DNA of 64,000 nt from an uncultured delta proteobacterium (GCA_963775425.1 CAVZJB010000017.1:32001-96000); one strand, 5' to 3'; counted from the stretch's first letter, positions 5,484-60,589 are shown. Translations and numbers: made by a program. The notes: a model not told the origin generated them from the letters alone.

Positions 5484-5543
5484 GCCGCGGCAGAGTGCCC
5501 CTTCGGCCCGCCTCGTGCAGGCAGTCCTCGTCGGAGGTGAGCC

Positions 5544-32358: not shown

Positions 32359-33354
32359 TCACGCCGCGCCCGGCAGCGTCGACGGCAGGCCGAAGCGCGG
32401 CGCGTCGAACGGCCCGACGAACGCGTGCAGCGCGGCGGCCAGGCCGTCGTCGGCGAGCGTGAGCACCGTGAGGCCCGCGGGGTGGTACGCGCCGTCGCCG
32501 GCGCGGGCGTAGGTCGCGAACGCGGGGGCGCCGTTGGCCCGCGTGGGGACGCAGCGCACGTCGGCCATGAGCGGCGAGCGGAACAAGCCGTCGGCGAAGG
32601 CGCGCACGGCGTCGCGCCCGCGGATCCACAGCGGCATCGGCGGCATCGAGAACGCGGCGTCCGCGCGCAAGAGCGCGGCGAGGGCGCCGGCGTCGTGGGA
32701 CTCGAAGGCGCGCACGAACCTGTCGACGACGACGTCGCTCGCTTCCCGCGCCGTCGTCGTCGCGCGCTGCCCTGGCCCGCGGGCGCCCGCGGACGGCGCC
32801 GACGCGAGCGTCTCTCGCGCGCGCTGCAGAGCGCTGTTCACCGCCGGCACCGTCATCTCCAGCGCCGCGGCCGTCTCCTCCGCCGAGTAACCCGCGACGT
32901 CCTTGAGGATGAGCGCGCCTCGCTGCCGCGGCGGGAGCGTCTGCAGCGCCGCGAGGAACGCCAGGCGCACGCTCTCACGCGCGTCGATGACGGCCTCGGG
33001 CCCGGGCGCGTCGTCGACGAGGAGGTCGTCGGGGATGGGCTCGAGCCAGAGCGGCTCCGCCAACGGCGGCGGCGGCGGCGCGACGGGATCGCCGGGCTCG
33101 GTGGTCCACAGCGGCAGCGAGCGCGCCTTGCGCTTGTCGACGAGGTCGAGGCTCGTGCGCGTGGCGATGGTGTAGAGCCAGCGCCGGAACGAAGAGCGCC
33201 CCTCGAACGAGGCGAGCCCCTTCCACGCCCGCACCAGCGCCTCCTGCAACGCGTCGTCGGCGTCGGCGAGGGAGCCCGTGACGCGGTAGCAGTGCGCGAG
33301 CAGCTCGCGCCGATGGGGCTCGATGCGCGCCCGGAAGTCGGCCTGCGGATCCAC
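32359..33354 (-). CDS. ECF sigma factor with C-terminal SnoaL-like domain (SigG-like)
   Basis: HCYRVTGS..DADDALQE, WLYTIA, LPPRQR, VNSALQRAR, FSMPP, TRANG. Confidence 0.9.
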   Translation of the reverse strand: MDPQADFRARIEPHRRELLAHCYRVTGSLADADDALQEALVRAWKGLASFEGRSSFRRWLYTIATRTSLDLVDKRKARSLPLWTTEPGDPVAPPPPPLAEPLWLEPIPDDLLVDDAPGPEAVIDARESVRLAFLAALQTLPPRQRGALILKDVAGYSAEETAAALEMTVPAVNSALQRARETLASAPSAGARGPGQRATTTAREASDVVVDRFVRAFESHDAGALAALLRADAAFSMPPMPLWIRGRDAVRAFADGLFRSPLMADVRCVPTRANGAPAFATYARAGDGAYHPAGLTVLTLADDGLAAALHAFVGPFDAPRFGLPSTLPGAA

Positions 33355-33426
33355 GCCGCATCTGTCGCCGCCCCCGGGCGCGGCGTCAACCGGTGCGCGT
33401 CAGCGACCGGACGGAGCGGCCGCGCA

Positions 33427-34026
33427 CTACGGCGACGACGCGTCGACGGAGGCGCTCGCGTTCAGCACCTCGTGGGCGTCGTGGCCGCAGATGGTGCCGG
33501 AGTATTCGATGTCGACGTTGCTCTTGAACTCGTCGCCGGGGGCCTGGCCGGCGGCGGCGTTGACGTGGCCGACGACGTCGATATCGCACGTGCCGTTGGT
33601 GTCGCCGGACGACGTCACCGAGCCCTGGTACACGGTGCGCACCGCGATGGCGGCGCCGGTGTCGCTCGAGCCGGCGTCGACGGCGGCGGCGTAGTGCAGC
33701 TCGCCGTCGAGGGTGTTGTCGTCGGGCTGGCAGGCGTCGTAGCGCACGTCGTAGCCGAAGAGCGCGTTGACCGTGTTCACCAGGGAGTCGTCGACGTCGA
33801 GCTTGGCCGTGAGCGAGGCCGTGCCGCTCTTTGCGCAGTCGACGTCGAAGTCGAAGCTCGCGGTGAGCGCCTGGGACTGCGACCCCGGCGACCCGGTCCT
33901 GCCGAGGCTCCTCTGCACGCTGCCCCAGAGCCTCTGGGTGCCGGCGTCGTCGACGCCGCAGCCGGCGCCGAGAGCGGTGGTGACGATGACGGCGGTGGCG
34001 AGCGAGAACATCACGGTGCGCTTCAT
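33427..34026 (-). CDS. Putative lipoprotein
   Basis: GAGG RBS; GAGC lipobox; beta-rich with several Cys. Confidence 0.7.
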   Translation of the reverse strand: MKRTVMFSLATAVIVTTALGAGCGVDDAGTQRLWGSVQRSLGRTGSPGSQSQALTASFDFDVDCAKSGTASLTAKLDVDDSLVNTVNALFGYDVRYDACQPDDNTLDGELHYAAAVDAGSSDTGAAIAVRTVYQGSVTSSGDTNGTCDIDVVGHVNAAAGQAPGDEFKSNVDIEYSGTICGHDAHEVLNASASVDASSP

Positions 34027-34163
34027 GGATCCCTCCTCGGGAGACCGGCGACCGTAGGCGCGCTCTGCGACGACGTGGGTCGGTCGATTGACGGATGGGG
34101 GCCGTGTGACCCGCGCACGCCGGTCGAGGTCCCACGGCGCAGGCCCCCGCGGCACCTACGCGC

Positions 34164-35225
34164 ATGAATACACCGCGCGTCTTTCTCGCCACGCTCGTCC
34201 TCCTCCCGCTCGCCGGCGCCTGCGGCCCGGGGCCGGCGCCGCGCGCCGACGGGCTCCTCCCGGTGGTCTCGAACGCCGAGATCGTCCTGATGGCGCCGAC
34301 CACCGACGACGTCGGGCCGCCCGGGGCCGACGCCCCGAGCGACCTCGTGGCGATGAACCTCGACGGGACGAACCGCACGCAGCTCACCCACGACGACGCG
34401 CTCGAATTCCTGCCGCACTTCTCGCCCGACGGGACGAAGGTGCTCTACACCAAGTTCGAGACGGGCACGTACGGGACGCAGCACGCCGTCACCGACGCCG
34501 CCGTCTACGACTTCGCCACCGACAGCGAGGCGCTGTTGACCAGCCGCGGCGACGTCATGCAGCCGGTGTGGTCGCCGGACGGGTCGACCATCGCCTTCGT
34601 GGTGCCGGGCGCCCCGCGCTCGGAGCTGTGGCTGATGGACGCCGACGGCGCGAGCCCGCGCCGCATCGCTGCGTCGACGGGCGCGGACGACGATCGGATC
34701 TGGGGCGACATCGCGTGGTCGAGCGACGATTGGATCCTCTTCGTCGTCGGCGAGCAGCCAGGCGGTCCGTGCTTCAAGGTGCGCATGGACAAGATCCGCC
34801 CCGACGGCACCGAGCGCACGCGCGTGACGGACGGCGGGCCGAGCTGCACCCCGGACGGCTTCGAGCAGTCCGGGGACGCCGACCCCGGCTTCTCCGCCGA
34901 CGGCGCGACGATCTACACGTCGCGCGGCCTGCCGCAGCCGCCCGCCGGCGGCGCGGCGCCGATGACGGAGCGGAAGCTCATCGCGCTGTCGAGCGATCCG
35001 TGGACGCCGCAGAAGGTGGAGACCGACCTGAGCCTGCCTTCGGAGCCCGACTGCATCGAGGGCGTGCCGAAGGGCTCTCCCGACGGCGCGCGCATCCTCG
35101 AGCTCCGCGCGTGCTTCGACCGCCCCGGCTTCGACGCGGGCGTCTACGTCGCCCCCGCCGACGGCGCGACGCGGACGTTCGTGGCGCACGGCTTCGGCGC
35201 CGACTGGAACCCCGCCGCGCCCTGA
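34164..35225 (+). CDS. TolB-like (PD40) beta-propeller lipoprotein
   Basis: AGAC lipobox; repeats PHFSPDG, PVWSPDG, FSADG, GSPDG. Confidence 0.85.
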   Translation: MNTPRVFLATLVLLPLAGACGPGPAPRADGLLPVVSNAEIVLMAPTTDDVGPPGADAPSDLVAMNLDGTNRTQLTHDDALEFLPHFSPDGTKVLYTKFETGTYGTQHAVTDAAVYDFATDSEALLTSRGDVMQPVWSPDGSTIAFVVPGAPRSELWLMDADGASPRRIAASTGADDDRIWGDIAWSSDDWILFVVGEQPGGPCFKVRMDKIRPDGTERTRVTDGGPSCTPDGFEQSGDADPGFSADGATIYTSRGLPQPPAGGAAPMTERKLIALSSDPWTPQKVETDLSLPSEPDCIEGVPKGSPDGARILELRACFDRPGFDAGVYVAPADGATRTFVAHGFGADWNPAAP

Positions 35226-35257
35226 ACACGGCGCGCAATCCGGCCACGGCGACGCGC

Positions 35258-35330
35258 AGACATTCGCGGCGGGGCACGACGTCGTCGTCGACGACAAACA
35301 TCGTGCCGCCGTGAACGTCGTCACGCCGCT
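35258..35330. repeat. 73-bp hairpin-forming direct repeat, copy 1
   Basis: AGACATTCGCGGCGGGGCACGACGTCGTCGTC...CCGCCGTGAACGTCGTCACGCCGCT; second copy at 35649-35721. Confidence 0.9.
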
Positions 35331-35416
35331 GAGCTCAAAGGGTGACGCGCAACGTGATCCGTCGGCGCCGGCGCCTCGGCGCGGCACGGGCAGTCCATTC
35401 GCGACGTCGGCGACGA

Positions 35417-35482
35417 CCCGGCGGGGCTTCACGTCGGCTGCGTCGACGCCCCGGCGGGGCTTGACGTCGGCTGCGTCGACGC
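35417..35482. repeat. 33-bp tandem repeat x2
   Basis: CCCGGCGGGGCTT(C/G)ACGTCGGCTGCGTCGACGC twice. Confidence 0.9.
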
Positions 35483-35485
35483 CCC

Positions 35486-35573
35486 GTAGGGCGGGGGCTT
35501 GTCCCCCGTGTCGGAAGGCCAGGCGCGGACGTCGCCGGTGCCGTCCGACGCGCCCCATAAGGGGGCGCCCTAC
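35486..35573. repeat. GTAG-type REP doublet (REPIN-like)
   Basis: GTAGGGCG-GGGGCTTGTCCCCCG ... CGCCCCATAAGGGGG-CGCCCTAC: inverted GTAG ends, each with a short hairpin. Confidence 0.7.
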
Positions 35574-35648
35574 GTGCCGATGCCTGGCGCCTCGACGACG
35601 GCGGCGGCCGTCGCCCCGATGCGGGAAGGCGCCGCAGGCGCGCGGCGT

Positions 35649-35721
35649 AGACATTCGCGGCGGGGCACGACGTCGTCGTCAGCGACGAACGCCGTCCCGC
35701 CGTGAATGTCGTCACGCCGCT
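35649..35721. repeat. 73-bp hairpin-forming direct repeat, copy 2
   Basis: Near-identical to 35258-35330; stem GACATTCGCGGCGGG / CCCGCCGTGAATGTC. Confidence 0.9.
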
Positions 35722-35725
35722 CAAA

Positions 35726-36625
35726 TCAGTTGAAGGCGTAGCACTCGCCGTCGCCGGTGGACGGGTCGTAGCCGCAGAAGATGCCGTGGTCGCTGCCGCT
35801 CTCGTTGTCGATGGTGAAGACGAGCGGATAGTCAGACGTAAGACCGTCGGGATCGTCCTCGCCCTTCAACAGGGCGCGCATGGGCAACCAGGCGGCGCGG
35901 GCGTCGCGGATCTCCTGGGTGGAGGAGCCCCAGTCGCGCATGTCGGGCTTGAAGTCGCTGTCGAAGAATTCGAGCGCCTTCTGCTTCACCGCCCGGTAGG
36001 TGGCGTCGGAGAACGGCGCAGGCGCCACGATGGTGCGCCCGTCGATGGTCTTCACGAAGGCGTCGCCGGAGAAGACGTTGCTGTCGATCTTGAGCTTGAA
36101 GCCGCCCTCCGCGGCGCTGACGTCCTTCAGCTCGACGCGCGCGGCGCGGGCGAGCCCGAAGTCGTTCACGAGGGTGTCCATCACCGCGGCCTTCTCCGCG
36201 TCCGGCAGCGCCGACGGCGACGGCGGCGACGGCGGGACCTTGCCGTCGAGGACGATGCGCTTGCCGGTGATGAGCTCGTAGGCCTTGGCGGCGCGCTGGG
36301 CGGTCTCCCCGTCGACGCCCTGGAGCCGCTTGATCTCGTCCCGCGACAGGAGCGCCTTGCCCGCGCCCGTGGTCTGGTTGATGCGCGCGATGTTGCGCTT
36401 GACGACCTCGAGCGCGGCGTCGGCGGCCTCCTTGGGCACCACGTGCTTGCCGGAGCCGCTGCGCATCCGCACCGCCTCGTCCCCCTCCTTGAGGAGGGCG
36501 GAGTCCAGGTTCTTGGCCTCCGCCTTGGACAGGAACGCGTCGCCGGCGGCGGTCTTGGCGTCCTTGAGGAGGCCTGCCGAAATGGTCGTGAGGACGGTGT
36601 CGAGACGGGCGCGTGTGGTCGTCAT
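35726..36625 (-). CDS. Hypothetical protein
   Basis: Strong coding-like codon bias; duplicated LSxxE motif (FLSKAEAKNL, LLSRDEIKRL), Pro linker, acidic C-terminal domain. Confidence 0.8.
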   Translation of the reverse strand: MTTTRARLDTVLTTISAGLLKDAKTAAGDAFLSKAEAKNLDSALLKEGDEAVRMRSGSGKHVVPKEAADAALEVVKRNIARINQTTGAGKALLSRDEIKRLQGVDGETAQRAAKAYELITGKRIVLDGKVPPSPPSPSALPDAEKAAVMDTLVNDFGLARAARVELKDVSAAEGGFKLKIDSNVFSGDAFVKTIDGRTIVAPAPFSDATYRAVKQKALEFFDSDFKPDMRDWGSSTQEIRDARAAWLPMRALLKGEDDPDGLTSDYPLVFTIDNESGSDHGIFCGYDPSTGDGECYAFN

Positions 36626-36706
36626 GGGCGGTGTATCGGGCAATCCCGCGGCGAAGGTGCGAGATGTAGGACACAGGACCGAGACGGCCGACTATGCTGC
36701 GCCGCC

Positions 36707-38248
36707 ATGAAGATCCTCCTCGTCCAGCCGGCCCCGTTCGAGCCGGGCCGGCTCGGCCTCGAAAACGCATGTTGGCTGTCAGAGCCCGCCGCGCTCACGT
36801 CTCTCGCGGCCATGGTGCCCGAGCATGCGTGCGTCATCCTCGACATGCGCCTCGAGGAGGACGGGGCGTTCAACCGCACGCTCCTCGAATTCCGCCCGGA
36901 CGTGGTGGCGGCGACCTCGATGACCACCGACTGCTACCAGGCCAAGGCGCTGCTCGCCTGCGCCAAGGGCACGCTCGGCGACGGCGTGTTCACCATCGTC
37001 GGCGGCCACCACCCCACGCTCGCGCCCGCCGACTTCGAGGACGCGTGCGTCGACGCCATCTGCCTCGGCGAGGGCGAGGACACCTTCAAGGAGCTGGTGG
37101 ACCACCTCGCCGCGGGCCGCCCGCGGGACGCCCTCGACGACGTCGCCGGCCTGCGCTTCTTCGGCGCCGACGGCGCGTGGCGCACGACGCACAAGCGCGC
37201 CCAGTCCCGCGACCTCGACTCCTTCCCGCTCCCGCGCCGCGACCTCATCGCCAAGTACAGCGGCAGCTACTTCTTCATGAACGCGCGCCCCATGGCGTCG
37301 CTGTCGACGTCGCGCGGCTGCAGCTACGACTGCAACTTCTGTGCGATCTGGGAGTTCTACGAGAAGAAGACGCGCTTCCTCTCGGCCAGCAGGACGTGCG
37401 ATGCCCTCGAGACCATCGACGAGCCGTTCGTCATGTTCCTCGACGACAACTTCCTCACGCACCGCACGCGGCTCCTCGACTTGTGCGACGAGATCGAGCG
37501 GCGCGGCATCAAGAAGCTCTGGGGCACGCAAGGCCGCACCGACTTCGTCGTCAAGAACCCCGACGTGATGGCGCGCCTGCGCAAGGCGGGGCTCACGCTG
37601 CTCATCTCGGGCTACGAGACCAACGACGACCAGGGCCTCGCCGCGCTCAAGAAGGGAAACGCCGGCGACACCAACAAGTTGGCAGCCAAGATCCTGGGCG
37701 ACCTCGGCGTGCTGCAGTTCGGCATCTTCATGGTGCGGCCGGACTTCAGCCATGCGGACTTCGACTTCATGTACCGCTCCATCGATGAGATGGGCATCTG
37801 CTTCCCCATCGTCACGGTGCACACGCCCCTGCCCGGCACCCAGCTCCGGCGCGCGCTGCAAGACGAGCTGTTGACCGAGGACGTGCGGCTCTTCAATCTG
37901 CTCCACGCGGTGCGCCCGACGAGGCTGCCGCGCCGCGAGTTCTACCACCGGCTCACGGAGACCTACCGCCGGCCATGGCTGAGCAAGGCCACGCTCAAGA
38001 CGCTGCTGCGGCGGCCGGACTTCCTGCGCCTGGCGCTGCCGGCCACCATCAAGTGGGCCAAGATGATCGCCGCCTATCACCCCGTGATGACGTCGGCGGA
38101 GAGCCACCTGCGCGACGAGATCGGCATCATCCCGGAGGACCTCGTCGCGGACAACGCGCCCGAGCGCGCGCGCGACGACGCCCCGCTGCGCCGGCGTGGA
38201 GCGCTGCCGATCGTCGACGCCGTCGATGTCAGGGGGGCCGCCGAATGA
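36707..38248 (+). CDS. Cobalamin-dependent radical SAM protein 1 (HpnR-like features)
   Basis: N-terminal B12-binding region (VGGHHPT, LGEGE); SRGCSYDCNFC; DDNF; TPLPGT; LFNLLHAVRPTRLP..EFY. Confidence 0.9.
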   Translation: MKILLVQPAPFEPGRLGLENACWLSEPAALTSLAAMVPEHACVILDMRLEEDGAFNRTLLEFRPDVVAATSMTTDCYQAKALLACAKGTLGDGVFTIVGGHHPTLAPADFEDACVDAICLGEGEDTFKELVDHLAAGRPRDALDDVAGLRFFGADGAWRTTHKRAQSRDLDSFPLPRRDLIAKYSGSYFFMNARPMASLSTSRGCSYDCNFCAIWEFYEKKTRFLSASRTCDALETIDEPFVMFLDDNFLTHRTRLLDLCDEIERRGIKKLWGTQGRTDFVVKNPDVMARLRKAGLTLLISGYETNDDQGLAALKKGNAGDTNKLAAKILGDLGVLQFGIFMVRPDFSHADFDFMYRSIDEMGICFPIVTVHTPLPGTQLRRALQDELLTEDVRLFNLLHAVRPTRLPRREFYHRLTETYRRPWLSKATLKTLLRRPDFLRLALPATIKWAKMIAAYHPVMTSAESHLRDEIGIIPEDLVADNAPERARDDAPLRRRGALPIVDAVDVRGAAE

Positions 38249-39021
38249 ACGCCGCCGACTTCCTCGCCGCCCTCCGCAACGAGGTGGAGAGCCACCCGGC
38301 CGTCAACCACATGTTCCTCTGCCGGCTCGCGCACGTGCCCTTCACGCGCGAGGACTATCTGGTGACGGGGCAGCAGCACTACCCGCTCGTCGGGACGTTC
38401 ACGCGTTACCTCGAGGAGCTCTTGCTGCGGGCGCCGTCGTCGGAGGCCAAGAGCTGGATCGCCAAGGTGCTCGTCGACGAATACGGCGAGGGCTCCGAGG
38501 GCAAGGACCACCGCACGCTGTACCGCGAGTACCTCGTGGCCGCCGGCCTGCGCGGCGACACCGAGATGGACATCACGCTGCACCCGGACGTGCCCGGGTT
38601 CATCCTCGAGCACCTGCGCATCTGCCGAGAGGAGCCGTTCCTCGTCGGGCTCGGGGCCGTGGGCCCCGGCCACGAGTGGACCATCCCCAAGATGTTCCCG
38701 CCCATCATCAAGGGCCTGCGGCGCGCGGGCTTCCGCGAGGAAGAGATCCGGTACTTCACGCTGCACACGCTGCAGGACGTCGACCACGGCCGTTGGCTCG
38801 AGGAGGCGCTCCTGACGTTCGCGACGACGGCGGACGCGCGCGCAGAGATCCGCCGGGGCGCGTTGCTGTCGTTGGCGGCGCGCGAGCGCTTCTGGTCCGG
38901 CGTGCAGGACAAGGTCACGCGCTGGCGCCAACCGAACAACGCCCACATCCGGCCCCAGGCGCGCAAGGACATCCGCGCCGACATCACCCTCCGCGCGCTC
39001 CGGGATCGGATCGCCGTGTGA
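38245..39021 (+). CDS. Heme-oxygenase-like diiron enzyme (HDO; CADD/PqqC/TenA fold)
   Basis: HPAVNH; LVDEYGEG..KDH; GHE; YFTLHTLQDVDH; ATGA overlap with the upstream gene. Confidence 0.85.
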   Translation: MNAADFLAALRNEVESHPAVNHMFLCRLAHVPFTREDYLVTGQQHYPLVGTFTRYLEELLLRAPSSEAKSWIAKVLVDEYGEGSEGKDHRTLYREYLVAAGLRGDTEMDITLHPDVPGFILEHLRICREEPFLVGLGAVGPGHEWTIPKMFPPIIKGLRRAGFREEEIRYFTLHTLQDVDHGRWLEEALLTFATTADARAEIRRGALLSLAARERFWSGVQDKVTRWRQPNNAHIRPQARKDIRADITLRALRDRIAV

Positions 39022-39070
39022 GGCGCCGTGACGTCATCCGGGGCGCCCCCGGCGTCGTCGCCGGTGACGC

Positions 39071-39931
39071 TTGAAGAGGCGCGACGTGCTCCAGGGCGCC
39101 GCGGGTGTCGTCGTCGCTGCCGCGGCAGGCTGCGCGACGACGACGTCAACCGCCGCGGCGCGAGGAGGCCGCGACGACGTCCCGGTGCGGCGGGAGCGCG
39201 AGCCGCGCGACGGCGTGGTGCACATCGGCAACTCCACGCACCTCATCGTCCTCGACGGGCTGCACATCCTCACGGACCCGTGGGTGCGAGACCCGGCCGA
39301 CGCCGTCCTCCTGCATCGGGTCCCCGCCGCGCCGCTCCCGATCCACCCCGACGTCGTCCTCGTCACCCACGAGCACGAGGATCACTTCGACGAGGCGGCG
39401 CTCGCGCTCGTCGACAAAGGCGCCACCGTGGTGCTCCCCTCGTGGCTCGAGGCGCGCGCCCGCGCGCTCGGGTTCACCGACGTGCGCGGTATGAACCCGG
39501 GTGACGTCGCCGCCGACGTCCGCGGCCTGAAGCTCGAGGCCGTGCGCGCGCTCCACGACGTCGACGAGGTCGCGTTCCGCTTCGAGCGCGCCGGCCGCGC
39601 CGTCTTCTTCGGTGGCGACACCCTCCCCACGCGCGAGATCCTCGAGCTCGCCATTCGCGCGCCCGTCGACCTCGCCGTCCTCCCCGGCGACGGCGGCGCG
39701 CTCCTCGGCGAGCGCTGGGTGATGAGCCCCGCCGAGGCCGTGCGTATGGCCGAAGAATTCTCCGTGCGCGCGCCGGGCCGGGGGGCGCTGCTCACGCACC
39801 ACGAGTGCAGCGTGTCGTTCCCCTGGGGCGCCATCGTCGACGTCAAACCGCCCAACCCTGCCGACTTCCCGCCCTGGTTCCACATCCCCGTCCCCGGCGA
39901 GCGGGTGCCGTTTCCATGGAGCACTGCATGA
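39071..39931 (+). CDS. Tat-exported MBL-fold metallo-hydrolase (probable lipoprotein)
   Basis: KRRDVL twin-Arg, AAGC; LTDPW, THEHEDH, GGDT, THH. Confidence 0.85.
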   Translation: MKRRDVLQGAAGVVVAAAAGCATTTSTAAARGGRDDVPVRREREPRDGVVHIGNSTHLIVLDGLHILTDPWVRDPADAVLLHRVPAAPLPIHPDVVLVTHEHEDHFDEAALALVDKGATVVLPSWLEARARALGFTDVRGMNPGDVAADVRGLKLEAVRALHDVDEVAFRFERAGRAVFFGGDTLPTREILELAIRAPVDLAVLPGDGGALLGERWVMSPAEAVRMAEEFSVRAPGRGALLTHHECSVSFPWGAIVDVKPPNPADFPPWFHIPVPGERVPFPWSTA

Positions 39932-41574
39932 AGGTCCTGTTCGTCGCCACCAAGAAGAACGAGGACCCCACGGAGCGCGAGCTGTACGAGCTCGACTTCC
40001 TCATCGACGTCCTCGGCTACAAGCGCTCGCTCGTCGACCTCGGCATCCTCACCGCCGCCGCCGCCACCCCCGCCGGCGTCGACGTCGAGATCATCGACGA
40101 GTACGTCGACGACATCCCGTGGGACACGGACGCCGACCTCGTCGCGCTCTCCGCCAAGACGTCGTGCGCGCCGCACGCCTACGCCGTCGCCGACGAATTC
40201 CGCCGGCGCGGCAAGAAGGTGGTGATGGGCGGCATCCACGCGTCCTTGAGGACCGACGAAGCGCTCGAGCACGTGGACTTCGTGGTGCGCGGCGAGGCCG
40301 ACGTCACCTGGCCGCGCTTCGTGCAGCTCTTCATCGAGGGCAAGGCGCCGCAGGTGATGCTCGAGGACGGCTTCCCGCCCATGGACATGATCCCGATCCC
40401 GCGCTGGGAGCGGGTGCCGCACAAGGACTTCATGTTCCACCAGTTGCAGACCACCCGCGGCTGTCCGTTCATGTGCCGCTTCTGCAGCGTGCCCGACATC
40501 TCGGGCAACGACTTCCGCTTCAAGCCCATCGAGAAGATCGTCGAGGAGATCGCCGCGTTCCCGAACCCGGGACCCATCAAGAAGATGTCCAAGTCGATGT
40601 ACGTCGTCGACGACAACTTCCTGTCGCGCGTCGGCTACACCAAGGAGCTGCTCAAGGCGCTGGTGCCGCTGCGGCGACAAAAGAAGGTGCCCGACTTCTC
40701 GTGCGAGACCACGTTCAACGTGGCGCTCGACGAGGAGCTCCTCGATCTGTTGCGCGACGCCGGCTGCACCACGCTCATCATCGGCTTCGAGTCCATCAGC
40801 GAGTCCACGCTCCTGTCCATGGACAAGAAGGTGAACTTCTGCCTGCCGTACGCCGAAGGGCTGGAGCGCATCCAGCGCCGCGGCATCGCGGTGATGGCCA
40901 ACTTCATCGTGGGCTTCGACACGGACACGCTCGGCGTATTCGAAGACACCCTCCGCTTCGTCGACGACAACCTCATCACCTATCCGTTCTTCTCCATCCT
41001 CACACCCATGCCGGGCACCAAGCTCCACGACGACTACAAGGCGGCCGGGCGGCTCGATCACACAGACTGGTCCCGCTACGACACGCGCCACGTCGTCATG
41101 GAGCCGAAGCACATGACGCGCGAGCAGCTCATGGACGGCTACTGCTATCTGTACCAGGAGGCGTACGCGTCGGACCGCGCCCTGGCTCGCCTCGAGAAGT
41201 CGTGGAAGACGCACCCGCACCACGTCTCCACCGCGGTCGAGAAGTGGTTCGTGTCCATGCGCATGACGATGTCGGGGAGCTGGCGCCGCGGCTCCGCCGA
41301 CTTCCAGTCGTACCTCCACCGGGCGTGGAGCGTCATGAAGCGCTCTGAGACGTCCGACGTCGGGCAGTTGCTCTACTACTTCGACTCCGCCCACTTCTCC
41401 GACGTCATCAAGCGCTACCGCAGCGCGCGGTGGGAGGAGAACGTCGCGCTGTTCAAGGACCCGCCCGCCGTCGACGTGGTCGAGAGCGTTCCGCAGAAGA
41501 ACGCCCCCGCCGAGCTCGTGCAGCTCGGCAAGAAGCAGTGGGAGTCCGCGCGCAGCAGGCGCCGCGTGGTGTGA
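39928..41574 (+). CDS. Cobalamin-dependent radical SAM protein 2
   Basis: MGGIHAS, RGEAD; TRGCPFMCRFC; VDDNF; IGFES; TPMPGT; ATGA overlap with the upstream gene. Confidence 0.9.
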   Translation: MKVLFVATKKNEDPTERELYELDFLIDVLGYKRSLVDLGILTAAAATPAGVDVEIIDEYVDDIPWDTDADLVALSAKTSCAPHAYAVADEFRRRGKKVVMGGIHASLRTDEALEHVDFVVRGEADVTWPRFVQLFIEGKAPQVMLEDGFPPMDMIPIPRWERVPHKDFMFHQLQTTRGCPFMCRFCSVPDISGNDFRFKPIEKIVEEIAAFPNPGPIKKMSKSMYVVDDNFLSRVGYTKELLKALVPLRRQKKVPDFSCETTFNVALDEELLDLLRDAGCTTLIIGFESISESTLLSMDKKVNFCLPYAEGLERIQRRGIAVMANFIVGFDTDTLGVFEDTLRFVDDNLITYPFFSILTPMPGTKLHDDYKAAGRLDHTDWSRYDTRHVVMEPKHMTREQLMDGYCYLYQEAYASDRALARLEKSWKTHPHHVSTAVEKWFVSMRMTMSGSWRRGSADFQSYLHRAWSVMKRSETSDVGQLLYYFDSAHFSDVIKRYRSARWEENVALFKDPPAVDVVESVPQKNAPAELVQLGKKQWESARSRRRVV

Positions 41575-41591
41575 CGCGCTAGGATGCACGC

Positions 41592-42242
41592 ATGCGATGC
41601 CCTCGCTGCCGCTCGGAGCTCACCCGCATTCGCGACGTCGACGCTTGTCTGCGCTGCGGCGGCGCCTTCCTCGCGGCCGCAGCGGTCGACACCGTGCGCC
41701 GCGCCGTGGACGACGATGCCCACGCCACCGTCGAGATCGTCGAGCAGCAGGGCGGCCGGCGCAGCGTGAACACCGCCGGCGCGGCGCCGTGCCCCGGGTG
41801 CGGTGAGGCGATGCAGCGCTTCCGCGTGGGGCCCGTCGAGGTGGACACCTGCCTCGCGCACGGCTCGTGGTACGACCGCGGCGAGCTCCTCGCGGTGCGC
41901 GACGCGCTGCTCGCCGGTCTGCCGAGCGAAGAGATCGACGTCGACGCGCCCCCTGCGCAGGCGCCCGCGGCGGCGGCGGCTCGCACGTCGTCGGGCCTCG
42001 AGCTCGATCATGCGCAGCTCGAGCACGCCAAGCGCGCGCCTCCGCCGAGCCCGCGCGCCGGCGGCATCGATCCCGGCGCGCAGGCGGCCATCGCGAAGCT
42101 GCAGGCCCACGAGGCCACGGAGCGCGAGCGCGAGCGCTGGCGGCACCGGCGCCGCTGGGGCTTCGGGCGCCGGCGGATCGGTGACGATCCCCTGCGCGAC
42201 GCGGTCGACGTCGTCGACGACGTGCTCAGCGTGCTCTTTTGA
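41592..42242 (+). CDS. Double zf-TFIIB-type zinc-ribbon protein
   Basis: CPRC..CLRCGG and CPGC..DTCLAHGSWYDRGEL. Confidence 0.8.
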   Translation: MRCPRCRSELTRIRDVDACLRCGGAFLAAAAVDTVRRAVDDDAHATVEIVEQQGGRRSVNTAGAAPCPGCGEAMQRFRVGPVEVDTCLAHGSWYDRGELLAVRDALLAGLPSEEIDVDAPPAQAPAAAAARTSSGLELDHAQLEHAKRAPPPSPRAGGIDPGAQAAIAKLQAHEATERERERWRHRRRWGFGRRRIGDDPLRDAVDVVDDVLSVLF

Positions 42243-42305
42243 CGTTCGGGCCGGCGCTGTGACGCGCACGAAGAGGCCGGCGCGCGGCGCTGCTATCCTG
42301 CCGCC

Positions 42306-43001
42306 GTGGAGCTTTGCGAGTACGTCCCGGGTGCGATCTGGCTCATGCCCTATCCGATCTCGTTGGCCGGCACGCGCTTCGAGGCGCGCATGGCGATCGT
42401 GCGGCTCAGCGACGGCGCGCTCGTCGTCCACTCACCGGGTCCGCTCGACGACGCCGTTCGCGAGCAGATCCTCGGGCTCGGTCGCGTCGCCGTGATCGTG
42501 GCTCCGGGCACCCTCCACCACCTCCATCTGGCGGCGTGCCAGCGCGCGTTCCCGAACGCGGAGACGTGGATCTGCCCCGGCGTCGAGCGCAAGCAGCCGG
42601 CGCTTCACTTCGACGGCGTCCTCGGCGAGCAACTGCCACCGTCGATGAGCGCCGACTTCGAGCAGGCGCTGGTGCGCGGCCGGGCGATCGCGGAGGTGGC
42701 GCTGCTGCACCGGTCGAGCGGCACGCTCCTGCTGGTCGATCTCCTCGAGCGATTCGGCGACCACACGCCCAACCTCAACTGGATGCTGCGCGCCCTCTGG
42801 AAGCTCCTCGGCACCTGGAACCGGCCCACGGTGGCGCCCGAGTACCGCTTCGGCGGCTTTTCGGATCGGGCGGCTGCGCGCGCCGCGCTCGAGCGCATCC
42901 TCGGGTGGGACTTCGAGCGGGTGCTGATCGCACACGGCGACCTCGTCGAGCGCGATGCCAAGGACGTGCTCCGGCGAGCATGGCGCGCGACGCTCGCTTG
43001 A
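42306..43001 (+). CDS. DUF4336-like protein
   Basis: RMAIVRLSDGALVVHSP, APGTLHHL, GTLLLVD, WDFERVLIAHG. Confidence 0.8.
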   Translation: MELCEYVPGAIWLMPYPISLAGTRFEARMAIVRLSDGALVVHSPGPLDDAVREQILGLGRVAVIVAPGTLHHLHLAACQRAFPNAETWICPGVERKQPALHFDGVLGEQLPPSMSADFEQALVRGRAIAEVALLHRSSGTLLLVDLLERFGDHTPNLNWMLRALWKLLGTWNRPTVAPEYRFGGFSDRAAARAALERILGWDFERVLIAHGDLVERDAKDVLRRAWRATLA

Positions 43002-43028
43002 TGGAGCTCGCGGGCCGGAGGGTCGCGC

Positions 43029-44036
43029 TCATGGAGCGGACGCTCGCTCCTCGTTCGGGCGCGCGTGCGCGAGGAACGCGAGACGATCGATGTGCGCGTC
43101 CATGGCGGCGGCGTCGCCGGTGCGCGCGACGTCGTCGAGGCCGCGGTACAGCTCGAGCACGAACGCGGCGACGTCGAACGCGCCGGTGTCATCGAAGCCC
43201 TCCCAGTCGAGGTGGTCGGCGGGGACGCAGCCGAGGAACGTCGCGTAGCGCATCGACCTCGTCGGGACGACGCCGTCGTGGGAGACGTCGCCCCAGGACG
43301 CGCGGATCATCGCGGCCCCGAACACGAGCAGCGGGTGCATCTCGTCGGTGACGGTGGGCGCGCTCCAGCGGCCGCCGGAGCAACTGCCGTCGACGTCCCG
43401 CCCGGTGACGCCGGCGACGGAGAAGAACGGCACCTGCGCGGGCGGCGGCGGGTGCGTCGCCGCGAAGCGCGCCATCCCGCGGCGCGACAGGTTCTCGAGC
43501 GCGCCGTCGGGGTCGGGCGCGGTGGCGTCGTCTCCTTGCGCGAGCTGCCACGTCACCCCGAGGGTATCGAGCGTGGCGCGCACGGCGGGCATGGGCCACG
43601 TGAGCGCGGTGTCCGCCACGCCCGTCCCCTGGTGCGGCGCGGCGATGGTGGCGACCACGGCGATGCGATCCGCGCCTCCCTGCGCGAGCGCCGCCCGGAC
43701 GTCGACCCCGCCTTGCGAGTGGCTGATGACCACGACCGTGCGCGCGCCCGTCCGCGCGCGCACCGCGTCGATCTGGCGGAGCAGATCGCGGCCGCGCGCG
43801 TCGCTGTCCGCCACCGGCGCGGGCGCGAGCTCCGTGACGTCGACGCCGGCGCCGGCGAGCGCCTCGACGATGGAGGCGGCGAAGTAGTGCTGGAGCACGC
43901 CGCTGTGCCGCTGCCCGAGGAACCCGGGCACGAGGACGAGCGGCGTGTGCGCTTCGGCGGCCGAGGCCGCGCCGCACACGAGCGCGCACGCGTGGAACAC
44001 GAGGAGCACACCAGCCACCGGGGAGCGCGAGGTCAT
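43029..44036 (-). CDS. Secreted lipase/esterase (alpha/beta hydrolase), paralog A
   Basis: VLVPGF, SHSQGG, PHQGT, HDGVVP, ADHLD. Confidence 0.88.
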   Translation of the reverse strand: MTSRSPVAGVLLVFHACALVCGAASAAEAHTPLVLVPGFLGQRHSGVLQHYFAASIVEALAGAGVDVTELAPAPVADSDARGRDLLRQIDAVRARTGARTVVVISHSQGGVDVRAALAQGGADRIAVVATIAAPHQGTGVADTALTWPMPAVRATLDTLGVTWQLAQGDDATAPDPDGALENLSRRGMARFAATHPPPPAQVPFFSVAGVTGRDVDGSCSGGRWSAPTVTDEMHPLLVFGAAMIRASWGDVSHDGVVPTRSMRYATFLGCVPADHLDWEGFDDTGAFDVAAFVLELYRGLDDVARTGDAAAMDAHIDRLAFLAHARPNEERASAP

Positions 44037-44118
44037 GCCCGGCGCGTGGCAAGCGCCGCGCCAGGCGCCCGGTGACCGCGTTCACACAGCGGAGGCGCTC
44101 GTGCCCCGTATCCCTCCC

Positions 44119-44394
44119 ATGAACATCAGGGCCCACGGACCGCGCCTCGCCGACGACGACACGAGCTCCGGGGCGGCGCCGGGCCCGGGCCGCGCCCGCG
44201 TGGTGTTTCGCGGCGGAAACATCGCCAAGATCGACGGGGCGGCCGTCCGCGCCGATCAGCGACCGGAGGGAGCGGCCGCGCCTGATCAGCGACCGGAGGG
44301 AGCGGCCGCGCCTGATCAGCGCGCCTTCCAGGATCCCATGGGCGAGGTCACCACGCCGCTCACCGTCCCCGCCGGGCCCGCGTCCGCCCCCTGA
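44119..44394 (+). CDS. Possible small ORF containing a 30-bp repeat
   Basis: Open frame in the gap between the lipases; overlaps the run-on tail of paralog B; no clear RBS. Confidence 0.35.
   Translation: MNIRAHGPRLADDDTSSGAAPGPGRARVVFRGGNIAKIDGAAVRADQRPEGAAAPDQRPEGAAAPDQRAFQDPMGEVTTPLTVPAGPASAP
44254..44321. repeat. 30-bp tandem repeat, about 2.3 copies
   Basis: GATCAGCGACCGGAGGGAGCGGCCGCGCCT x2 plus GATCAGCG. Confidence 0.9.
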
Positions 44395-45428
44395 GCGAGC
44401 CGCCGCTGTTCGCGTCGCGCCGCGCCGCCGGCGGGCCTTCGCTCGACGGGGACGGCGTGGGCGAGGCGCGCGAGCGCGGGGACGTGGGCGTCCATCGCGC
44501 CCGCGTCGCCCTGCTCCTCGACGTCGCGCATGCCGCGCCACAGCTCGACGAGGAACCCGAGATCGTCAAAGCGCACGGAGTCGCCGGCGTCGCTGTCGCC
44601 GAGCGACCAGCCCATCCAGTCGACGTGGTCGCCGGGGACGCACCCGAGGAAGGTGCCGAAGCGCATGCTGTTGGTGGGGACGACGCCGTCGTCGCTCTCC
44701 TCGCCGCCCCTGGCGCGGATGAGGAGGTGGGCCGGGAGGAAGAGCGGGTGCAGCGAGTCGACGCCCGCCGGCTCGCCCCACTTGCCGCCGTGCACGCATG
44801 CGCCGTCGACGTCGCCGCCGCTCACCGACGCCACGGAGAAGAACGGGACGCCGCCGGTGCCCGGGTACCTCTCGTTGAAGCGCGCGCTCCCCGCACGCGA
44901 GAGATCCGCGAGCGCCCCCGCGACGTCCGCGGCGCGATGGCGCTGGTGCTGCTCGTACTCCCACGTGGCCTGCACGCGGGCGAGCGCGGCCTCGACGAGG
45001 ACGCGGGGCATCCAGGCGGCGGCGGCGTCGGCGAGGTCCGTGCCGTGGTGCGGCGTGGCGAGCGTGACGACGACGGCGACCTTGTCCGCCCACCCGGAGG
45101 CGAGCGCCACGCGGACGTCGAGGCCACCCTGCGAGTGCGCGATGATCGCGACCTTGTCCGCGTGCGTGCGCAGGAGCACGTCGTCGATGGCGCGCCCGAC
45201 GGCGGCGCCGCGCGCTTCGCTCGACGCGATGGGCGGCGGCGCCATGGCATAGACGTCGGCGCCCGCGTCCTCGAGCGCCTCGCGCAAGCCCTGGAAGTAC
45301 GGGCCCACGGTCTCGATGTCGCGCCACCCCATGAAGCCCGGCACGAGCAGCACCGGCGACGCCGCGCGCGCCGGCGCCGGCGCGAGCGCGGCGACGACGA
45401 CGAGCACGACGAGAGTGACGCGCGCCAT
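44316..45428 (-). CDS. Secreted lipase/esterase (alpha/beta hydrolase), paralog B
   Basis: [31 protein letters not shown]. Confidence 0.88.
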
Positions 45429-45493
45429 CCCCGCATCGTAGTCGGCCGCGCGCGCGGGCGGGGGACCCGCGCGCCCCCGCCCGGCCGCGCGGA

Positions 45494-47161
45494 TCACCCG
45501 ATGTCGAGGAGCGTCGGCTCGTACCCCTCGGGCGCCTGGAAGCCGAGCAGGTTGAGCACGGTGGCGGCGACGTTGGCGAGGCCGGGGACGGCGAGGTCCT
45601 TGCGCAGGCGCACCGACGGCAACAGCCCGGGGCCCGCCAGGGCGAACGGCACCGGGGCCAGCGTGTGCGACGTGCGCGGCAGGACGTTCCCCTGGCCGTC
45701 GCGCAGGGGGACGCCCAGCTTGTCGCGCAGCGCCATGTCGTCGGCGTTTCCGTGGTCGGCCGTGACGGCGATGACGCCGCCGGTCTCGCGGGTGGCGTCG
45801 ATCAACCTGCCGAGCGCGGCGTCCACGGCCTCGACCGCCTTGATGGTGGCCGCGAGCATGCCGGTGTGCCCCACCATGTCGCCGTTGGCGAAGTTCACGC
45901 GCAGCAGGTCGAACTTGCCGCTCTTCATCGCGGCGATCGTGGCGTCGGCGATCTCCGGCGCCTTCATCGCGGGCCTGTCCTCGAAGGGTGGCGCGTTCGA
46001 GGGGATCTCCCGGTACGTCTCGAGCGCGTCGTCGAAGCGTCCGGAGCGGTTGCCGTTCCAGAAGTACGTGACGTGCCCGAACTTCTGCGTCTCACTGCAC
46101 GCGAAGGTGCGCACCTTCATGTGCGCCAGGTACTCGCCGCTCGTGCCCTCGATGACCGGCGGCTCCACCAGGTACGTCTTCGGGATGTGGAGGTCGCCGT
46201 CGTACTCCATCATCCCGGCGTAGACGACCTTGGGACGGCGCACGCGATCGAACGGCTTGAAGTCGTCCTCCTCGAACGCGCGCGAGATCTCGATGGCGCG
46301 GTCGCCGCGGAAGTTGACGAACAGCACGCCGTCGCCGTCGACGATGCGGCCCACCGGCTCGCCGCCGTCGGCGACCACGAACGCCGGCAGGTTCTGATCG
46401 GAGATGCCGGGCTTGTCCTTGCGGAACGCATCGATTGCCGCGCGCGCCGACGGGAACGTCCTCGCGTCGCCGAGCACGTGCGCCTTCCAGCCGCGCTCGA
46501 CGATGGACCAATCGCTCTCGTAGCGATCCATCGTGACCAGCATGCGGCCGCCGCCGGAGGCGATGCGCGCGTCGACCGGAGCGCCGTCGGGCCCCCGGAG
46601 CTTCGCGAGGTGCGCCTCGAGCTCCTCGACGTACTTGTGCGCGCTCCCGTCGGGGACGTCGCGGCCGTCGAGGAGCACATGAAAGCGCAGGCGCTTGGCG
46701 CCGCGGGCGACGGCGCCGTCGACGACGCCGAGGATCTGGTCGAGGCGCGAGTGCACGCCGCCGTCGGACAGCAGCCCGATGAAGTGGAGCGTGCCGCCGG
46801 CGGCGAAAGCGCCCTGCAGCTTCTTGAACCCCTTGCCCTCGAACAGCGCGCCGGTCTCAAGGGCGGTGTCGACGAGGCTCGCGCCCTGCAGCACGATGCG
46901 GCCGCTGCCGAGGGCGTTGTGCCCGACCTCGCTGTTGCCCATGTCGTCGTCGGTGGGCAGGCCCACCGCGGTGCCGTGCGCCTTGAGCTTCATGGAGCGC
47001 GCGCCGTCCTGCAGGAGCGCGTCGAGGTGCGGGGTCTTGGCCTGCGCCACCGCGTCGAACGCGTCGCCGCTGCCGATCCCGACGCCGTCCATGACGACGA
47101 TGAGCACGGGGCCCTGCGGCTTCTTCAGGCGGGGGTGCGGCGCGAGCGTCAAGTCGGTCAT
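45494..47161 (-). CDS. gpmI: 2,3-bisphosphoglycerate-independent phosphoglycerate mutase
   Basis: [49 protein letters not shown]. Confidence 0.96.
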
Positions 47162-58683: not shown

Positions 58684-60483
58684 CTACTGCACCGACGACA
58701 GCGGGACCGACGCCGTGACCGTGCGCGTGCCGGGCATCGCCACCGGCTTTGCCATGTGCTCGGCCAACGACGTCGCCGCCGGGAGCGCCTCCGGGTAGCG
58801 CTCCTTCATCAGCCTCTCGAAGAAGTCGTCGAGCACCGGGAACTGGTTCACCATGGCGGTGAAGTCGTCGCGCGACATGACGAGGACGTCGACGGGCGTC
58901 GTGGCGCGGACGCTCGCCGCGCGCGGGGTGTCCTCGAGCAGCGCCTTCTCACCGAAGACGTCGCCCTTCTTGCAGGTGGCGATGGAGTGCTCGGCGGTGC
59001 CGTTCTCGGCGGGCTGGAACACCTCGACCTCGCCCGCCTTCATGATGAACAGCTCGCGACCAATCTCGTGCTTGGCGATGATGATCTCGCCGGGCTCGTA
59101 GTGGTCGACGCGCAGGCGGTCGGCGCGCATCGTCTGGATCTGCGTGATGTCCCGCGGGAAGAAGAGATCGAGGGTCCAGTCGATGGTGACGCGCAGCCGC
59201 CTCACCAGGCCGGGGAGCTTGGAGAGGTACACCGTGCGCCACGCGAACCAGGCGATGAAGCCCTTCAGGTGAATGCCCATCATGTCGGCGACGGCCTCGC
59301 GCCGGCCGAGCGACGCGAGCATCCCGAGCGCCTTGAAGTTGAACTTCTTGAGCGGCCGGCCGTCGATGCTGGCGACGATGTTGTACGCGCACGTCTTGGC
59401 CTGACGGATGGCGAACTGCGCGGTGGCCGGGCACAGGCTCTCGGGGTGGAAAGGATCGGGGACGCCGGCGTTGTCGCCGACCGCCCAGTAGCCGGGCTTG
59501 CCCGTGCAGCCGAGGGTCAGGTCGGTCTCGAACACGCCGACGGCGCGACCGTGGGACTTGCCCTCGACGAAGCCGCCCTTCTTGAGCGCCTCCTTGGCCA
59601 CGGGGTTGGCGGCGTTGCCGACGGTGCAGATGAAGGTGCGCGTGGGGAGGAACTTGCCGCTCTTGAGGTAGACACCGTGTCGCGTGGCTGCGCGCACGCG
59701 CTCCTTGAGCAGGAGCTCGACGCCGCGCTTCCTGAGCGCCTTGGTGGCGGCGGCGCCGAGGTCCGGCTTCATCTCGGGCAAGAGCACGTCACGCGAGTGG
59801 ATGAGCATCATCTTCACTTCGCTGTGCTCGATGTTGTGGAAGGACTTGATGCAGCGGTGGAGCAGCTCCGAGAGCTCACCGATGGTCTCCACGCCCGAGA
59901 AGCCGCCGCCGGCGACGACGAACGTGAGGAGCGCCTGCTTCTCGGCGGGATCGTCCTCGATGTCCGCGAGCTCGAGGCACTGGAAGACGTGGTTGCGCAG
60001 GTTGAAGGCGTCGCTCAGGTCCTTCATGGCGAGCGAGTGCTCGGAGACGCCGGGCATGGACGAAAAGTCGCTGACCTTGCCGAGGCCGAACACGAGGTGG
60101 TCGTACGGGACCTCCACGAGCTCGCGCCCCTCGCCCTGTGCGGCGAGGACCACCTTCTTTTCGCAGTCGACGCCGATCACCTTGCACCACCGGAACTGCG
60201 CGTCGGGGACGATGTCGCGGATGGGGTTGACGACGTGCGTGGCGCTGACGCCGCCGGCGGCCACCTCGGGCAGCAGCGGCTGGAAGACGAAGTAGTTCTC
60301 TTCGGACAGGAGCTCGACGTGCACGTCGCGGCGCCCACCGAGCATCTTGCTCAGGTACTTGGCGCAGTACACGCCGGCGAACCCGCCGCCCAGGATGACC
60401 ACCCGTTGCTTGGCCTCGGCGATGCGCTTCAACAGCGAAGGCGGACCCGGCTTGGCGACGGCGATGCTCGTGTGGTCGGTCAT
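58684..60483 (-). CDS. ndh: Type II NADH dehydrogenase fused to a C-terminal cyclic-nucleotide-binding domain
   Basis: GGGFAG, FQPLLPEVA, GGGFSGVE, GD, AQFAIRQA; C-terminal GEIII...GEVEV...FGEKALL...PRAASV. Confidence 0.9.
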   Translation of the reverse strand: MTDHTSIAVAKPGPPSLLKRIAEAKQRVVILGGGFAGVYCAKYLSKMLGGRRDVHVELLSEENYFVFQPLLPEVAAGGVSATHVVNPIRDIVPDAQFRWCKVIGVDCEKKVVLAAQGEGRELVEVPYDHLVFGLGKVSDFSSMPGVSEHSLAMKDLSDAFNLRNHVFQCLELADIEDDPAEKQALLTFVVAGGGFSGVETIGELSELLHRCIKSFHNIEHSEVKMMLIHSRDVLLPEMKPDLGAAATKALRKRGVELLLKERVRAATRHGVYLKSGKFLPTRTFICTVGNAANPVAKEALKKGGFVEGKSHGRAVGVFETDLTLGCTGKPGYWAVGDNAGVPDPFHPESLCPATAQFAIRQAKTCAYNIVASIDGRPLKKFNFKALGMLASLGRREAVADMMGIHLKGFIAWFAWRTVYLSKLPGLVRRLRVTIDWTLDLFFPRDITQIQTMRADRLRVDHYEPGEIIIAKHEIGRELFIMKAGEVEVFQPAENGTAEHSIATCKKGDVFGEKALLEDTPRAASVRATTPVDVLVMSRDDFTAMVNQFPVLDDFFERLMKERYPEALPAATSLAEHMAKPVAMPGTRTVTASVPLSSVQ

Positions 60484-60589
60484 GATGCGTGCCTCGATGC
60501 CGCGGACGGCGGTGAATACGGGGCGGCACGCTAGCACGTTCCTCGCGGACCGCCGTGCGGGCTCTCGCGTTCCACCGTCAGCGCTCGGT

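Follow-up and report, generated by a model that had tools for sequence, protein, structure and literature searches.

A cobalamin-binding radical SAM protein and a heme-oxygenase-like diiron protein form the conserved core of a bacterial gene module and are predicted to work as one enzyme

Four co-directional genes at positions 36707-41574 of a 64,000-nucleotide stretch of DNA from an uncultured delta proteobacterium (GCA_963775425.1 CAVZJB010000017.1:32001-96000; the whole stretch is called the window below) encode two class-B, that is cobalamin-binding, radical S-adenosylmethionine (SAM) proteins, termed rSAM1 and rSAM2, a heme-oxygenase-like diiron oxidase/oxygenase (HDO) and a metallo-hydrolase of the metallo-beta-lactamase (MBL) fold. 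On balance, we favor the interpretation that these genes represent a self-contained module, in which rSAM1 bound to HDO would constitute a two-component enzyme, rSAM2 would act in the same pathway, and the substrate would be a common compound, probably a lipid-soluble one. The conserved unit consists of a near-invariant rSAM1-HDO core with rSAM2 as its partner at the genome level, and the MBL gene is dispensable. A first-pass annotation, made from the sequence of the window alone, took all four genes as one cassette; as a conserved unit, this has to be narrowed to rSAM1 and HDO, the MBL gene being missing from most related loci.

Related loci were collected on the basis of HDO: 17 from a genome collection (with titles naming Myxococcota-type metagenome-assembled genomes, Acidobacteriota and Planctomycetota), 26 from a metagenome collection and five from genomes of the window's phylum. 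The tally comprises 44 HDO-bearing loci; L018, L019 (a duplicate of L002), L050 and L051 were left out, and L047-L049 are without an HDO at 50% identity or higher. The loci are partly non-independent: L003 and L025 have an identical MBL translation, L016 and L038 show the same HDO match figures, and L004, L005, L024, L026 and L027 are close kin. Upstream sequence is readable for 1.6 kb or more in 25 loci, and in 23 of these the rSAM1 gene lies directly 5' of HDO; the rSAM1 stop and the HDO start overlap by four bases in eight of the 20 loci examined. Many of the 44 HDO loci are truncated; a gene for rSAM2 was identified in 25 of the set. Fifteen loci reach 4 kb or more upstream and 3 kb or more downstream; among these, rSAM1 is found in 14, rSAM2 in six, MBL in five and a gene for a pentaheme cytochrome in three. 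Co-occurrence of the genes across loci, which the first-pass annotation had proposed to check, holds for rSAM1 with HDO, but the complete four-gene order of the window is repeated only in L002, L006 and L029.

Across 301 genomes of the same phylum, HDO orthologues were identified in nine, and rSAM1 orthologues (49-70% identity) in exactly the same nine; two further genomes contain only rSAM1 paralogues at 36% identity. Orthologues of rSAM2 (53-78% identity) are present in eight of the nine HDO genomes, and another 28 genomes have only paralogues (34-41% identity); one of these 28, G195, is marked as unpublished, and no conclusion depends on it. In the genomes G116 and G088 the rSAM2 gene is located on a different contig from rSAM1-HDO. 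Because it co-occurs with the pair there although unlinked to it, we consider rSAM2 to be a pathway partner and not a mere neighbor. The MBL gene was found in only one of five other module-bearing genomes. Within families, the distribution of HDO is patchy (three of ten in the window's family and five of 20 in another family).

Structure prediction suggests that rSAM1 probably acts while physically bound to HDO, in a single complex. The predicted pair reached interface scores (ipSAE, interaction prediction score from aligned errors) of 0.89, 0.89 and 0.88, compared to 0.00 for the best of three controls, with at least 93% of contacts common to the runs and predicted local distance difference test (pLDDT) values of the partner of at least 87. 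Of 157 solved complexes, 116 attain the mark for calling a complex, as do two of 215 mismatched pairs; these counts are only rough with the author-made alignments used here. Sequence searches with each of the two proteins yielded no complex of a radical SAM protein with an HDO among solved relatives, and we know of no such solved complex; the prediction is therefore unlikely to reproduce a structure already known. Predicted contacts on the rSAM1 side involve residues 12-16, segments 51-60, 77-90 and 112-114 of the B12-binding domain, residues 392-394 and the C-terminal tail (453-474), and those on the HDO side involve residues 15-36, 149, 153 and 218-237, the last segment containing a conserved RWRQP motif. 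This motif and the conserved motif in the rSAM1 tail, both otherwise unexplained, would find an explanation in the predicted interface, to which both belong.

Pairing of the two proteins is also seen in a natural fusion. A protein of 799 amino acids (P0131), named in its source 'B12-binding domain-containing radical SAM protein [Paraliomyxa miuraensis]', joins a part with 60% identity to rSAM1 (residues 24-489) to a part with 48% identity to HDO and lends independent support to the pairing. Another candidate fusion (P0134), of a cytochrome with half of an HDO, was discarded as a probable frameshift or assembly artefact.

HDO (38245-39021, plus strand, 258 amino acids) matches the Pfam domain Haem_oxygenas_2 (PF14518) with 89.9 bits against a cut-off of 28.9. 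The closest folds to its AlphaFold2 model (pLDDT 91.4) are those of CADD, BesC and HrmI, with template modelling (TM) scores of 0.73-0.77, 20-22% identity and a probability of 1.00; UndA is a more distant match. Residues E79, H89, E144, H174, D178 and H181 align with CADD positions that we take to be the CADD metal ligands. Across 31 sequences, five of the six never vary and H174 is kept in 30, so that HDO appears to retain the complete set of predicted ligands (E/H/E/H/D/H); metal occupancy and reactivity with O2 are predicted accordingly. In addition, the family has a conserved C-terminal extension, RWRQPxNxHLR. In records carrying the labels Myxococcota, Acidobacteriota and Planctomycetota, family members are 56-76% identical to the window protein. 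When 1.84 billion representatives were searched with a profile, only 64 came up at an E value of 1e-30 or better, and just about a dozen full-length ones at 1e-75 or better; by these sequence comparisons, the family is compact and strongly conserved. Public records name its members 'iron-containing redox enzyme family protein', and the automatic label of the Joint Genome Institute (JGI) is 'PqqC'. Two specific identities were considered and rejected. The score with the CADD-type 4-aminobenzoate synthase model (TIGR04305) is 40.2 bits against 200, and the position of CADD Tyr27, presumably the sacrificial residue of that protein, is an invariant leucine (Leu25) in the HDO family; the BesC model gave a score of 33 with a cut-off of 500. 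In some lineages (L007:4950-5141, L030:3250-3453 and L009:7830-8012) the open HDO frame extends roughly 60 residues further 5', from an in-frame methionine, which fits database entries of 320-330 amino acids; the window HDO has no such extension.

Conservation of the six ligands in stand-alone HDOs favors catalysis by HDO over an alternative that we consider improbable, namely that HDO is an auxiliary subunit of rSAM1 with a structural, redox or O2-handling role, or is itself the protein substrate in a CADD-like self-sacrifice. The strong predicted complex is consistent with this alternative, and helix 1-2, which in CADD bears the sacrificial Tyr27, falls in the predicted interface. In the Paraliomyxa fusion, H174, D178 and H181 are replaced, and its HDO part may be structural only, since three metal ligands are lost; its interface segments are better kept than the remainder, with 29 of 42 residues identical (counted on the alignment) versus 48% overall. 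On the other hand, the Tyr27 position is an invariant leucine in HDO, and the predicted contacts on rSAM1 are with segments of the B12-binding domain and with the C-terminal tail.

The first gene of the core, rSAM1 (36707-38248, plus strand, 513 amino acids), encodes a B12-binding domain (PF02310, 58.3 bits, cut-off 32.1) and a Radical_SAM domain (PF04055, 32.7 bits, cut-off 29.5), and the cluster cysteines C205, C209 and C212 are invariant in 18 aligned homologues. By domains and motif, both rSAM1 and rSAM2 are class-B radical SAM proteins, for which the use of cobalamin is predicted. The protein is HpnR-like but is not HpnR: HpnR (TIGR04367) is its best NCBIfam match (192.5 bits, 1e-56, residues 1-420) with a cut-off of 650 bits, and BchE (TIGR02026), the second-best curated match, scores 126.7 bits against 481. 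Equivalence to either family was therefore rejected. Matches to the solved relatives AprD4, OxsB, CysS and TokK are weak, all at 41 bits or less. Beyond the part aligned to HpnR lies the C-terminal tail (approximately residues 453-474), which is clade-specific and carries a conserved SHLRDEIG motif with L468, D470, E471 and G473 invariant.

The match to HpnR bears on the substrate classes suggested in the first-pass annotation, where the four genes were seen as tailoring a membrane lipid/triterpenoid or a small metabolite that is finished outside the cytoplasm. In its lipid form, this proposal amounts to a four-gene cassette that modifies a triterpenoid of the membrane, be it a hopanoid, a sterol or another one, with the last step left to a hydrolase exported through the twin-arginine (Tat) pathway. 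Besides HpnR as the best curated match of rSAM1, an automatically named Atlas look-alike cluster ('Hopanoid C-3 methylase family') and the RR/lipobox leader of the window's MBL protein point in this direction. We nevertheless regard such a cassette as very improbable. The HpnR score is less than a third of its cut-off, MBL is present in five of the 15 long loci and the leader in three of seven MBL copies. Furthermore, the host genome, which is 94.5% complete, has no match to the squalene/oxidosqualene cyclase model TIGR01787, scores only 21.2 bits with PF13243 and has no match to the squalene/phytoene synthase family SQS_PSY (PF00494). Lacking matches to both the cyclase and the synthase, hopanoids, sterols and squalene- or phytoene-derived carotenoids are unlikely substrates in this genome, and the suggestion of a triterpenoid did not survive the cyclase check.

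The second radical SAM protein, rSAM2 (39928-41574, plus strand, 548 amino acids), matches the Pfam domains Radical_SAM (68.9 bits, cut-off 29.5), B12-binding (41.1, cut-off 32.1) and, at its C terminus, DUF4070 (22.0, cut-off 22). Its cluster cysteines C179, C183 and C186 are invariant in 17 aligned homologues. The best curated families are BchE (97.3 bits, cut-off 481) and HpnJ (88 bits), both far below cut-off. The best solved relative is the Protein Data Bank entry 9ccb (64 bits, E value 7e-17, residues 173-437), which is identified as QCMT in a review of B12-radical SAM enzymes (PMC12931638); the model TIGR04014 gives 78 bits against 360.

What the module acts upon is suggested mainly by what does not accompany it. 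In the related loci, the module has no carrier protein, ligase, non-ribosomal peptide synthetase (NRPS), ATP-grasp protein, precursor, transporter or exporter, or regulator as a conserved companion; the neighbors beyond it vary, and no flanking gene is conserved across lineages. Since no carrier, ligase, precursor, transporter or regulator travels with the module, its substrate is most likely a common cell constituent of every host. We lean weakly towards a substrate that is lipid-soluble, be it an acyl or prenyl lipid or a quinone. Three weak hints are consistent with this: HpnR and HpnJ, which together with BchE are the nearest curated families of the two radical SAM proteins, are lipid enzymes; fatty-acid desaturase genes adjoin the module in L007, and thiolase and aldehyde dehydrogenase genes lie beside it in L021 and L022; and, for some lineages, MBL and the cytochrome are predicted to have an anchor that holds them at the membrane's outer face. 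The thiolase and aldehyde dehydrogenase genes are located directly 5' of rSAM1-HDO and in the same direction (L021:11856-14579, minus strand; L022:5264-7963), in two related large genomes where rSAM2 is unlinked. As for the cofactor, the host genome (G000) has no CobS match and seven matches to B12-binding domains, including two further large B12-domain open reading frames (ORFs) on contigs C17 and C11. With no CobS and yet seven such matches, the host presumably imports cobalamin.

A product of a different kind, a soluble small metabolite such as a C-methylated and oxidised derivative of an amino acid or nucleotide, serving as a signal, osmolyte or cofactor precursor, would be in keeping with the nearest solved relatives of HDO, since BesC, HrmI and CADD act on amino acids. 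It would also be in keeping with the chemistry of the partner: many characterised B12-radical SAM enzymes methylate small molecules, according to the same review (PMC12931638). We find this alternative rather unlikely, though worth keeping in mind. The module has no conserved ligase, NRPS, ATP-grasp protein, exporter or regulator beside it, and in some lineages prediction places its accessory proteins in the periplasm with a membrane anchor, which a membrane-resident product would fit better.

The accessory MBL gene (39071-39931, plus strand, 286 amino acids) starts with TTG, the sole in-frame start downstream of the preceding stop. Its product matches Lactamase_B_3 (PF13483, 53.1 bits, cut-off 24) and Lactamase_B_2 (PF12706, 49.8 bits, cut-off 27) and contains the motif HEHEDH (H100-H105); H100, H102, D104, H105, H162, D183 and H243/H244 are invariant in seven sequences. 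By domains and motif, it is a metallo-hydrolase of the MBL fold. The fold neighbors of its model (pLDDT 79.0) are UlaG, SaxA, NAPE-PLD and UPF0173, and since all four match at 18-23% identity, no substrate can be assigned to MBL from them. The N terminus of the window protein (KRRDVLQ...AAAGC) resembles a twin-arginine lipoprotein leader and scores 16.6 bits with the Pfam model TAT_signal (PF10518), for which the cut-off is 22.7. This RR/lipobox leader is found in three of seven MBL copies, those of the window, L002 and L017, which are close relatives; it is absent in L003, L006, L029 and L046, where the protein starts just 5' of the first beta-strand. With the leader restricted to three copies, all from close kin, predicted export of MBL would be a trait of one lineage and not a property of the pathway, and the claim that the product is finished outside the cytoplasm loses its general basis.

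In nine loci (L004, L005, L009, L011, L024, L026, L027, L034 and L044; for example L009:4099-5370, minus strand) a gene for a pentaheme c-type cytochrome of approximately 400 amino acids, with five CxxCH motifs and an N-terminal hydrophobic segment, is found in or beside the module, often between rSAM2 and rSAM1. Its best curated match is ExtKL, with 43 bits against a cut-off of 250. A search with the L009 protein as a query did not find the cytochrome in the window's own genome. As judged from gene content, MBL is an accessory, lineage-restricted gene, and the cytochrome gene is an alternative accessory gene.

All four ORFs in the window are real genes. Their arrangement agrees with its first description: ATGA overlaps were read in the sequence at 38245-38248 (rSAM1/HDO) and 39928-39931 (MBL/rSAM2), the former making rSAM1 and HDO translationally coupled in the window, and HDO and MBL are separated by a 49-bp gap (39022-39070). 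Similarly, the CxxxCxxC motif and the B12-binding N terminus of both radical SAM proteins, the E/H/E/H/D/H pattern of HDO and the HxHxDH motif of MBL were all found, and they are conserved in the homologue alignments. A promoter of the module is presumably located in the divergent intergenic region of 63 bp 5' of rSAM1 (36644-36706). No sigma-70-like site was detected in 35600-43200, where the promoter and terminator scan did not exceed the shuffled expectation. No Rfam family matches within 33000-45000, and thus no cobalamin riboswitch is recognised at the locus. Recent horizontal transfer was considered and rejected for want of a compositional sign: the GC content at third codon positions (GC3) is 0.92-0.97 in the four genes, equal to that of their neighbors. 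A scan of 28 flanking ORFs in the window turned up neither an NRPS or polyketide synthase (PKS) nor a carrier protein or precursor peptide, as the first-pass annotation had it, and its idea of a stand-alone enzyme cassette without assembly-line genes is supported.

The absence of a precursor gene is also relevant to another alternative, in which radical SAM, heme-oxygenase-fold and MBL-fold proteins would convert a precursor peptide into a cofactor, as in a pathway for pyrroloquinoline quinone (PQQ) or for peptides that are made on the ribosome and modified after translation (RiPPs). The triad of folds is the same as that of PqqE, PqqC and PqqB of the pqq operon, and the JGI label of HDO agrees with it. 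However, the intergenic gaps around the module measure 63, 49 and 17 bp and therefore leave no room for a precursor-peptide gene, and domain scans of the module genes detected no PqqD or RiPP recognition element (RRE) and no SPASM domain. HDO retains six metal ligands, unlike PqqC, which we take to be metal-free, and most loci lack MBL. Between rSAM1 and HDO, L010 (approximately 7780-8000) and L032 (approximately 5465-5680) do have a conserved ORF of some 65 amino acids, which ends in ...ANCANAF..NG...EH(I/L)FDK(I/L)F and could be taken for a precursor gene, but it is limited to a single lineage, of the Acidobacteriota type. Altogether, we give a PQQ-like or RiPP pathway very little credence.

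Outside the module, a gene for a Zn-ribbon protein of the TFIIB type (41592-42242) begins 17 bp past the rSAM2 stop and is followed by a DUF4336 gene (42306-43001), both co-directional with the module. Neither of these genes nor the hypothetical gene 5' of the module (35726-36643) has a counterpart in the related loci. Further 3', tandem alpha/beta-hydrolase genes on the minus strand (43029-44036 and 44316-45497) show weak matches to palmitoyl-thioesterase and PGAP1-like families. Elsewhere in the window, a minus-strand gene (58684-60630) encodes a pyridine-nucleotide oxidoreductase of the NDH-2 type fused to a C-terminal cyclic-nucleotide-binding domain.

In the two-component enzyme that we favor, rSAM1 would use SAM, a [4Fe-4S] cluster and cobalamin for methylation or another functionalisation of an unactivated carbon, and the docked HDO would activate O2 at its diiron site for hydroxylation, desaturation or cleavage of the same molecule. 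A second radical step would be carried out by rSAM2. In the window's lineage, the exported MBL lipoprotein might then hydrolyse the product or a derivative or conjugate of it; in other lineages MBL appears to be cytoplasmic or absent, or a membrane-anchored pentaheme cytochrome c may take its place. A more far-reaching proposal, which we put forward tentatively and hold to be possible but doubtful, is that, in aerobic bacteria of soil and sea, the O2-labile cobalamin/[4Fe-4S] radical SAM protein and the O2-activating diiron oxygenase form an obligate hybrid, in some cases as one polypeptide. With rSAM2 as a partner, this hybrid would build an undescribed membrane-resident molecule, such as a C-methylated, hydroxylated quinone or a branched, oxidised lipid, which in some lineages would be handled on the periplasmic face by the lipoprotein hydrolase or the membrane-anchored pentaheme cytochrome.

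Several points weigh against a two-component enzyme with a lipid-soluble substrate. HDO occurs without rSAM1 upstream in L008 and L038 (L016 apparently being the same sequence as L038), and no rSAM2 orthologue was found in the genome G058, which is 91% complete. The rSAM1-HDO complex is a model and not a measurement. With respect to fusions, the Paraliomyxa protein has replaced half of the metal ligands, and a second rSAM1-HDO fusion (P0128) was rejected because its middle is scrambled, a probable frameshift artefact. CADD, BesC and HrmI have amino acids or protein side chains as substrates, not lipids, and the neighbors that provide a lipid context are confined to single lineages and may represent chance synteny. 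Finally, all catalytic steps are assigned by family membership.

B12-radical SAM enzymes and HDOs both belong to the most active fields of new enzyme chemistry, and a stable pairing of an O2-sensitive radical enzyme with an O2-consuming one raises two questions: how O2 is tolerated, and which reaction needs both chemistries. Records with the labels Myxococcota, Acidobacteriota and Planctomycetota, from metagenomes of soil and sea, contain the module; what the module makes could therefore be a lipid, quinone or metabolite that is widespread in the environment and has gone unrecognised. Compact and sharply delimited, the module also lends itself to direct testing: only two or three genes are involved, the interface is clearly predicted, and one or more named species have the fused form.

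In agreement with the first-pass annotation, we found in the literature, mostly at the level of abstracts, no described pathway that combines a B12-radical SAM enzyme with an HDO, and no complex or fusion of the two. In the available portions of the respective texts, neither 'diiron' nor 'heme oxygenase' occurs in the review of B12-radical SAM enzymes (PMC12931638), 'radical SAM' does not occur in an HDO mining study (PMC13185094), and 'diiron', 'heme oxygenase' and 'partner' do not occur in a review of lipid radical SAM enzymes, which mentions no HDO partner for HpnR (PMC13459092). The component families are known; that a B12-radical SAM protein and an HDO would act as a single enzyme, in a module of three enzymes, has to our knowledge not been described. 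The hopanoid C-3 methylase HpnR has, like rSAM1, a radical SAM core preceded by a B12-binding domain at the N terminus. It differs in that rSAM1 scores far below the HpnR cut-off, resides in a host without a match to the hopanoid pathway and has a clade-specific tail that is predicted to bind HDO. CADD (CT610), BesC and HrmI share with HDO the helical fold and, in the case of CADD, aligned positions of the E/H/E/H/D/H pattern, at the low identity given above. On the HDO side there are the RWRQPxNxHLR extension and an obligate radical SAM neighbor, neither of which we know from these three proteins. The PQQ operon (PqqA-E) likewise combines a radical SAM protein with proteins of the heme-oxygenase and MBL folds. 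In the module, by comparison, no precursor or PqqD was found, the radical SAM proteins are of the B12 type and not the SPASM type, the heme-oxygenase-fold protein has metal ligands, and MBL is dispensable. Among solved relatives of rSAM2 the best, at only 64 bits, is QCMT (MgmA), the glutamine C-methyltransferase that acts on methyl-coenzyme M reductase. The module carriers are bacteria, whereas we take methyl-coenzyme M reductase to be a protein of methane-cycling archaea (no search for it was made in the carriers). BchE, an anaerobic B12-radical SAM enzyme, and AcsF, an aerobic diiron enzyme, are Mg-protoporphyrin monomethyl ester cyclases that serve as alternatives for one step of chlorophyll synthesis, and they represent the same two chemistries as rSAM1 and HDO. 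In contrast to BchE and AcsF, rSAM1 and HDO share a locus and are predicted to form a complex with each other, and the two radical SAM proteins of the module score 127 and 97 bits with the BchE model, for which the cut-off is 481.

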